A DNA stretch of 64,000 nt from Eledone cirrhosa. Taxonomy: Eukaryota. The position numbers and the translations under genes are program-made. Location: assembly GCA_964016885.1 (NCBI GenBank), contig OZ024740.1:92132001-92196000 (forward strand), written 5' to 3'. Below are positions 60,861 to 61,830 of the stretch, piece after piece. The notes under the pieces are model-generated. The model searched no databases and was not told the DNA's origin. It saw only the letters and a program-made list of their open reading frames with translations. The first letter of the stretch is position 1. Each line of letters opens with the position of its first letter.

Positions 60861-61830
60861 AATATTAAGATAAGCAAAACAAGCAACATTCAACCAATTT
60901 TTAAAAATAAATTAAAAAATATAATTTAAATATTTACCTATTCTTTTGGCCCTTACCGATCGGTTTCACTTTGTAAAACACCAGAAATCCAATGGAAAAT
61001 CAAAGTTCATCAGAGAAGCATTTTCCTTTCCTAGGGCTAAAGTCCCAGGAACGATAAAATATATTGTTATCTGCCAGCTAGCACAGGTCCAAAAGGCCGA
61101 AAAATGACCCGTACGTGAACTTCCCGAGGTGAAAGCGGGAAAAACATAGACATGTTGTCTATCTCGTTACTAAAAATAGCAGCTAAATAGAAACAACAGA
61201 TTTGTTCTCAACATAGCGGAAAATAATAATAGAAGTTAATATGCCCATGGGTACTAAGTACCCCTAGAAATATATAGGTTGTCTATGATTTAAGGTTGTT
61301 CTATGGTATTAATTTGACATACCAGAACTATAATATTAAGATATTTATTTTTACTCCGTTATGTTGAGAACAAATCTGTTGTTTCTATTTAGCTGCTATT
61401 TTTAGTAACGAGATAGACAACATATCTTTGTTTTCCCCGCTTTCACCTCGGGCAGTTCACGTATGGGTCATTTTTCGGCCCTTTGGATCTGTGCTAGCTG
61501 GCAGATAACAATATATTTTATCGTTCCTGGGTCTTTAGCCCTAGGAAAGGAAAATGCTTCTCTGATGAACTTTGATTTTCCATTGGAAATCCATTGGATT
61601 TCTGGTGTTTTACAAAGTGAAACCGATTGGTAAAGGCCAAAAGAATAGGTAAATATTTAAATTACATTTTTTTATTTATTTTAAAAAATTGGTTGAATTT
61701 TGCTTGTTCTGCTTATCTTAATATTATAGTTCTGGTATGTCAAATTAATACCATAGAACAACCTTAAATCATAGACAACCTATATATGTCTAGGGGTACT
61801 TAGTACCCATGGGCATATTAACTTCTATTA
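60861..61830. mobile_element. Family I (relative of H), two inverted ~480 bp monomers; HHRs 60948-61019 (-), 61556-61638 (+)
   Basis: gcttct-CTGATGA-actttg..caaagt-GAAA-ccgatcgg-TA-agggcc. Confidence 0.85.

Follow-up and report, generated by a model that had tools for sequence, protein, structure and literature searches.

Animal non-LTR retrozymes are short, non-coding, GC-poor repeats without LTRs, which occur in tandem and carry one type I hammerhead ribozyme, and for which a circular RNA template and a Penelope partner have been put forward (PMC7229834; bioRxiv 10.64898/2026.07.22.740005), the role of Penelope in moving them being a proposal in PMC7229834. Penelope elements are described as leaving an inverted, 5'-truncated copy and a tail at one end, with a bias for (TA)n (PMC8557442; PMC3846280), and PMC8557442 describes as undefined the route by which they come to insert in inverted and tandem form. 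In vitro, the tail is the stretch between two start sites of reverse transcription, and both strands of the target are cut and extended (PMC11167929). In this study, we describe a 481-nt non-coding repeat of Eledone cirrhosa that is present in well over a hundred genomic copies, in TA repeats, and we compare one insertion of it, at positions 60861-61830 of the window (the whole stretch of 64,000 nt that was analysed), with the rest of its family and with a sister family of 484-nt units. Judged by its genomic copies, the repeat resembles a retrozyme and bears the footprint of Penelope elements, and the signal lies in paired fixed ends, read-through and clonal arms.

The unit is likewise short, non-coding, low in GC, tandem, free of LTRs and equipped with one type I hammerhead, and it is somewhat longer (481 nt) than the retrozyme units of 150-450 nt that are quoted; unlike the retrozymes as described, it forms dispersed two-armed inverted insertions, mostly below one unit in length, with paired fixed ends in (TA)n (PMC7229834; bioRxiv 10.64898/2026.07.22.740005). 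In the accessible text of these sources, the word "inverted" is absent from PMC7229834 and occurs once, in the title of a reference, in bioRxiv 10.64898/2026.07.22.740005. Moreover, retrozyme circles have been shown experimentally in published work; for the present family a circle is a prediction. The Neptune and Nematis elements, which have a C-terminal endonuclease, are reported to leave the same inverted truncated copy, one-end tail and (TA)n target, and to share with the present family partial tandems and a type I hammerhead near the 3' end; their tail is 30-40 nt long vs. about 105 nt here, and the unit here has no ORF (PMC8557442; PMC3846280). The unit behaves like a Penelope element and may or may not descend from one, no sequence likeness to the coding elements examined having been found. 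The Poseidon element of Anolis, as described in vitro, has an AT-rich target and a predicted protein dimer, but its internal start sites are used alike on both strands and the RNA used was linear, in contrast to the one arm per site in nearly every two-armed insertion and the multi-unit read-through found here (Frangieh et al. 2024, PMC11167929).

With the unit numbered from the predicted hammerhead cut, the outer ends of the arms lie at position 96 (site A) or at positions 199-201 (site B), and the inner ends lie anywhere. The locus at 60861-61830 consists of two inverted arms that diverge from the centre, both sense 3' ends abutting (TA)n (Table 1), and this structure is far beyond chance (BLAST E about 0). 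The earlier note had read it as two full monomers in different circular permutations, back to back, and two differently opened, inverted copies of the roughly 480-nt unit are indeed present, their lengths being scaled to the natural 482-nt unit (family period 481-482 nt). It had also seen that the left arm starts and ends with aatattaagat, which is found at 60861-60871 and 61332-61342; the redundancy between the two ends of this arm is 15 nt with 0 mismatches. That the right arm opens at "another tatta site" was roughly right, its start being a variable AT-rich stretch at site B of which about 10 letters resemble the hypervariable site-B stretch only loosely. As to the permutations themselves, the arms are opened at different points as stated, but it is the inner ends alone that vary, the outer ends being the fixed sites A and B. 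The two arms differ at 18 of 470 compared positions and by an 11-nt deletion in the left arm, located in the stem II insert. Their uneven identity (1 mismatch in 112 positions vs. 17 in 358) first suggested diverged units of a linear precursor, an idea that was dropped because the majority of the differences occur in one arm alone and no register is favoured at other loci. No target-site duplication is distinguishable at the locus. There is no ORF of at least 100 aa inside 60861-61830 except for frames entering from the TA arrays, and the 481-nt unit has no RT plus GIY-YIG ORF. The locus is an ordinary A+B member of its family.

Table 1. Coordinates, in the window, of the insertion at 60861-61830, its surroundings and the coding Penelope-like element
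Feature	Position	Strand	Details
Left arm	60861-61342 (482 nt)	sense on -	1.03 units; outer 3' end at site A
Right arm	61343-61830 (488 nt)	sense on +	1.00 unit; outer 3' end at site B; carries the tail
Tail, site A to site B	61729-61830	+	confined to the outer end of a single arm; about 105 nt across the family
Predicted tail hairpins	61730-61760, 61794-61808		counterparts present in the sister family
Head-to-head central junction	61332-61354		where the variable inner ends of both arms meet
(TA)n target array, left	60626-60860
(TA)n target array, right	61831-62104
Predicted type I hammerhead, left arm	60947-61020	-	core intact; 6-bp stem II base; perfect 10-nt palindromic stem III
CUGAUGA of left-arm hammerhead	61013-61007	-	predicted cut between 60954 and 60953
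Predicted type I hammerhead, right arm	61555-61639	+	core intact; stem I and the stem III palindrome carry private changes
CUGAUGA of right-arm hammerhead	61562-61568	+	predicted cut after 61632
Neighbouring sister-family insertion	59552-60625	B-ended arm on -, A-ended arm on +	inverted; 97-nt one-sided tail
Coding Penelope-like element	6658-10044		inverted copy in (TA)n; RT E 6e-5 and GIY-YIG E 6e-4, both below Pfam cut-offs

The hammerhead that the earlier note placed inside each arm is there as one predicted type I hammerhead per arm, which combines CUGAUGA and GAAA with a GUA triplet, a palindromic stem III and a stem II whose 6-bp base carries a long insert. Rfam returned no hammerhead match at the gathering score nor at E up to 10, and the call therefore rests on the core letters and the stems. 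Of 120 family hammerheads, 109 have CUGAUGA, GAAA and the UH triplet intact, 117-120 have standard pairs at positions 2-6 of stem II, and 9 have a two-sided change that preserves the stem III palindrome; the first stem II pair is an A-C mismatch, its commonest state, in 63, which counts against the model. Both arms of the locus share an allele, seen in 1% of other loci, that gives an A-U first stem II pair. The predicted energy of stem III is -16.6 kcal/mol for the self-duplex vs. -0.9 kcal/mol for the hairpin, and such a two-copy stem III duplex would be similar to the dimeric hammerheads described in the axolotl (PMC7229834). Each arm of the locus has a single cut site, on opposite strands, so that the locus cannot release a monomer or a circle; two or more cut sites per arm are present in 15 of 155 family arms.

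The family was surveyed in three sets of loci. A 23-nt family motif has 252 exact matches in the 3-Gb genome, and the motif-selected set comprises the listed loci on the two largest contigs (C1 and C2), 65 after removal of duplicates. The second set holds 41 further loci, 40 found by an A end beside TA (114 matches were listed, of which the first 100 were used) and 1 by the motif, and the third holds 20 loci selected by their B end, 5 of them also in the motif-selected set. Loci retrieved twice, 22 in number and among them L100/L101, a duplicated pair, were removed ahead of the counts, and the initial 30 loci, picked for full-length matches, were excluded from the length statistics unless the motif search also recovered them. 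In the motif-selected set, 37 of the 65 loci are two-armed and head-to-head with variable inner ends, namely 31 A+B, no A+A, 1 scored as B+B and 5 with a non-canonical end, and 28 are single. The sole scored B+B (L025) is a local duplication of 38 nt with no TA at its end, and 31 of 32 classifiable two-armed insertions thus have one A and one B end. The A-selected loci gave 21 A+B, no A+A, 2 non-canonical and 18 single, and the B-selected loci 15 A+B, no B+B and 5 single. Loci with a single arm are frequent, making up 46 of the 106 in the two unbiased sets, which counts against the model, and A and B ends adjoin (TA)n in nearly all flanks inspected.

If the site were chosen freely, 31 A+B pairs out of 31 would have a probability of 9e-10, and independent choice of the outer site is excluded. 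The priming at any TA-like patch that the earlier note envisaged is likewise not borne out, the outer ends being two fixed sites that are used as a pair. It is improbable that the two arms come from separate RNAs or RNPs of one dominant source, or that short arms were later expanded or homogenised by unequal crossing-over and gene conversion; separate RNAs would be expected to give A+A or B+B pairs about half the time, and the point that speaks for them is one A+A locus, in the sister family. In L1 twin priming, a single RNA is primed from both ends of the target, and the resulting cDNAs are linked head-to-head through short overlaps, the second site being free and the copied parts non-overlapping. 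In contrast, both sites are fixed here and the arms can overlap by whole units; short overlaps at the central junction are present in 44 of 60 pairs (from BLAST ends, hence approximate). We found no publication with the pairing rule or with twin priming for Penelope elements or retrozymes among what were mainly open-access main texts, and supplementary figures of PMC7229834 and PMC11167929 may bear on this. No long-range helix joining A and B is predicted. The site-B stretch (unit positions 185-208, about 61815-61830 and 61343-61354 at this locus) is the most variable part of the unit, with more than 40 variants in about 60 internal passes, for which short triplet repeats may be the cause. By analogy, sites A and B would be start sites of reverse transcription like those that define the Penelope tail.

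The earlier note took each arm to be about one turn around a circular RNA, primed at TA-like patches, and it is almost inconceivable to us that such a turn, stopped on return to its own primer, holds for the family. The 155 arms with an A or B end have a median of 0.53 unit (range 0.05-1.95), the mean run of reverse transcription is about 275 nt, and the longest arm of the family, from the length-biased first set, has 3.3 units. The proposed survey for a peak at unit length, run on these 155 arms, gave none: 9 arms fall in the bin of 0.95-1.05 units and 11 and 6 in the neighbouring bins, and in a hazard test that left out the locus at 60861-61830, 6 stops lay within 16 nt of one full turn vs. 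4.5 expected (P=0.30). That locus, with its arms of 1.03 and 1.00 units, is the only one of 50 A+B pairs in which both arms measure 0.9-1.1 units, 0.36 being expected by chance; three B arms of 1.00 unit in the unbiased sets (L001, L013, L121) also fit a single turn. With no unit-length peak and with outer ends that are fixed, neither a single turn as the rule nor free priming holds, and arms of up to 3.3 units, and of 10 units in the sister family, also go against it. Once around is thus refuted as a rule, a slight surplus of one-turn stops may exist, and the paired full turns at 60861-61830 are a chance case. This locus is likely a dead-end product, both of its arms having stopped near one turn by chance.

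With regard to the template, 74 of the 95 arms that end at A and 32 of the 60 that end at B run across the predicted hammerhead cut, and 15 of the 155 do so twice; a linear self-cleaved monomer would limit A arms to 96 nt and B arms to 201 nt. Reverse transcription of the hammerhead RNA through its cleavage site is supported by these counts. It is quite unlikely that the template was such a linear monomer on which the reverse transcriptase jumped repeatedly from the 5' end to the 3' end, yielding tandem passes without a covalent circle. Template jumping is known for the reverse transcriptases of non-LTR elements, which counts for this reading, and inner ends show a mild excess from -15 to +25 around the cut, with 30 vs. 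18.8 expected and, in two-armed loci, 25 vs. 12.9 (P=0.002), in a range chosen after looking; the excess could mean that some of the template was linear. There is, however, no excess within 5 nt of the cut itself (4 inner ends observed vs. 4.5 expected), the letters across the predicted cut are preserved in most passes, and 8-9 consecutive joints are identical in young arrays. Stops at site A (4 vs. 5.3 expected) and at site B (7 vs. 3.7, P=0.08) show no significant excess. A circle, on which the same ends would be joined covalently, is the likelier template, as the earlier note had it, and is supported by the read-through, by shared alleles and by identical units in sister arrays.

The shared alleles are seen within and between arms. 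Two arms of one locus diverge by about 2.5% vs. 5.5% between loci, and at 31 of 32 loci the arms are closer to each other than they are, on average, to those of other loci. In the 20 loci that give both measures, passes within an arm are 2.1% different and arm vs. arm 1.6%, and no register between arms is closer than any other. Rare or private alleles present in every pass were found in 23 of 56 repeatedly covered loci; there are 52 such alleles vs. 1.4 expected, and 20 of them span both arms. Another 265 rare alleles are confined to a single pass and are best read as later mutation. The shared alleles could alternatively come from gene conversion or tandem expansion after insertion, and conversion between inverted arms would indeed yield them as well. 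A fold-back copy, in which an antisense template or the cDNA primes itself at a palindrome and so yields the inverted arm, has been proposed for rotifer Penelope elements (PMC3846280), and at 6 of 60 pairs the inner ends are within 20 nt of each other, some of them at palindromes; yet the inner ends of the other 54 pairs lie well apart, and 17 of 60 arm pairs have no sequence in common, so that an arm cannot be a fold-back copy of its partner there, which speaks for two priming events. Fold-back would also leave unexplained the two fixed outer ends, each joined to (TA)n. It is largely refuted for the family by the non-overlapping pairs, and we hold it to be very unlikely.

The sister family bears on the same question. 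Its unit aligns with the 481-nt unit over the full length with 291 of 482 positions identical (about 60%; score 169 vs. 15 +/- 15 for shuffles), with sites A and B at matching places and both tail hairpins present, the second changed on both sides. It is younger and more abundant, accounting for most of the 1383 matches to the common stem III motif. The pairing is not absolute in it: its two-armed loci comprise 15 A+B of 18, 1 A+A and 2 with a damaged end, the exception being L209:1428-1922, where both arms end at site A. At L221, 7 of the 8 whole units of an 8.8-unit A arm are identical, and the 172-nt B arm has 0 mismatches in 172 positions; at L225/L252, a 10-unit B arm faces a 1.9-unit A arm, and 9 of 10 units are identical, one of these lying in the opposite arm. 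Sister units from different loci are 3-54 substitutions apart. Since units are identical within a locus and different between loci, each sister array is a clone of its own monomer, which is what copying round a circle would give. Later expansion of short arms would have had little time at L221, where the short arm is identical to the long one.

The main rival is the same paired priming by Penelope machinery on an uncut linear tandem transcript of a genomic array, a linear tandem precursor being the alternative that the earlier note named, and we consider it unlikely. In the in vitro work on the Anolis element, it was mainly uncut RNA that served as substrate (PMC11167929); a dimer is enough for most arms at their median length, arrays of 9-10 units are present in the sister family, and a hammerhead that depends on dimerization may be slow to cut. 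Nevertheless, every long array is in turn an arm that ends at A or B and is cloned from a unit of its own; there is no preferred register, and passes within an arm are no closer than the two arms are to each other. Moreover, with the mean run of about 275 nt, linear copying alone would shorten the sources in every generation. It seems that a circular template is rather likely, and the circle, a prediction drawn from genome copies, is a plausible idea.

The window also contains a coding Penelope-like element (Table 1), with a cysteine linker of the Neptune/Nematis kind (PMC8557442), a hammerhead-like motif in the 3' UTR and two ends that lie 54 nt apart. In its family, one of each end is found in 3 of 3 loci that show both ends, and also in the window copy; this family is abundant and young, with open frames of up to 1281 aa elsewhere in the genome. 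A coding partner with sequence likeness to the unit was found neither in this family, with which the unit shares no sequence, nor among 26 GIY-YIG fragments (13 clusters) from the retrieved DNA, and no upstream GIY-YIG lies beside the 107 hammerheads checked in both families. Several other repeats are present in the window. Inverted repeats that are unrelated to the unit, sit in (TA)n and extend further on one side, by about 60-170 nt, lie at 10464-12217, 13040-15751, 16863-17054, 54386-56380 and 62831-63262, that at 16863-17054 bearing hammerhead-like motifs, and the (TA)n inverted repeat at 41987-42815, with equal outer ends, is an exception to the one-sided tail. Tandem and inverted repeats lie at 22331-24457, 28946-29834, 49305-50396 and 58435-59270, with periods of about 593 and about 455 nt in two of them, and more hammerhead-like motifs are found near 24817, 25788, 29134, 49129, 58770 and 59207. 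There is also a decayed fragment of a non-LTR retrotransposon with a weak RT match at 46595-48508, and a near-perfect short hairpin just past the TA array at 62105-62215, with a relative at 53611-54000.

We propose that the element is a retrozyme without autonomy, which Penelope machinery inserts by target-primed reverse transcription in a paired form and probably from a circular template, and as a whole this chain of events seems to us somewhat more probable than not. Regarding its parts, mobilisation by Penelope-type machinery is very probable and two priming events at fixed sites are probable. Firstly, the minority of copies with two hammerheads per arm would be transcribed. Secondly, the palindromic stem III would let two hammerheads cut as a dimer, by which a monomer is released, and the lone hammerhead in the ligated circle would be nearly inactive. 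A Penelope-type RT/GIY-YIG protein, perhaps as a dimer, would then bind the hairpins around A and B and nick both strands of (TA)n; one nick would prime at A and the other at B, and each reverse transcriptase would circle the template until it drops off at random. Finally, the two cDNA 3' ends would anneal or be end-joined, giving a head-to-head repeat with the tail on one side. It is conceivable, though we put it forward tentatively and would not bet on it, that one protein dimer holds one circular hammerhead RNA at its two start sites and extends both cut ends at once, each around the circle, in which case the family would preserve in the genome the missing step of Penelope transposition.

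This proposal makes predictions that can be counted: each start site should give one arm, copying should pass the ribozyme site, and the arms of an insertion should both be clones of a single sequence. Units of 481-484 nt are small enough to be synthesized as circles. If it is right, it would provide a natural path from a small circular RNA to tandem DNA insertions. If the suggestion of one dimer on one circle were true, Penelope elements generally would need no other rule to account for their inverted copy, their tail at one end and their tandem passes, and the ribozyme circles of animals would be genuine intermediates of retrotransposition.
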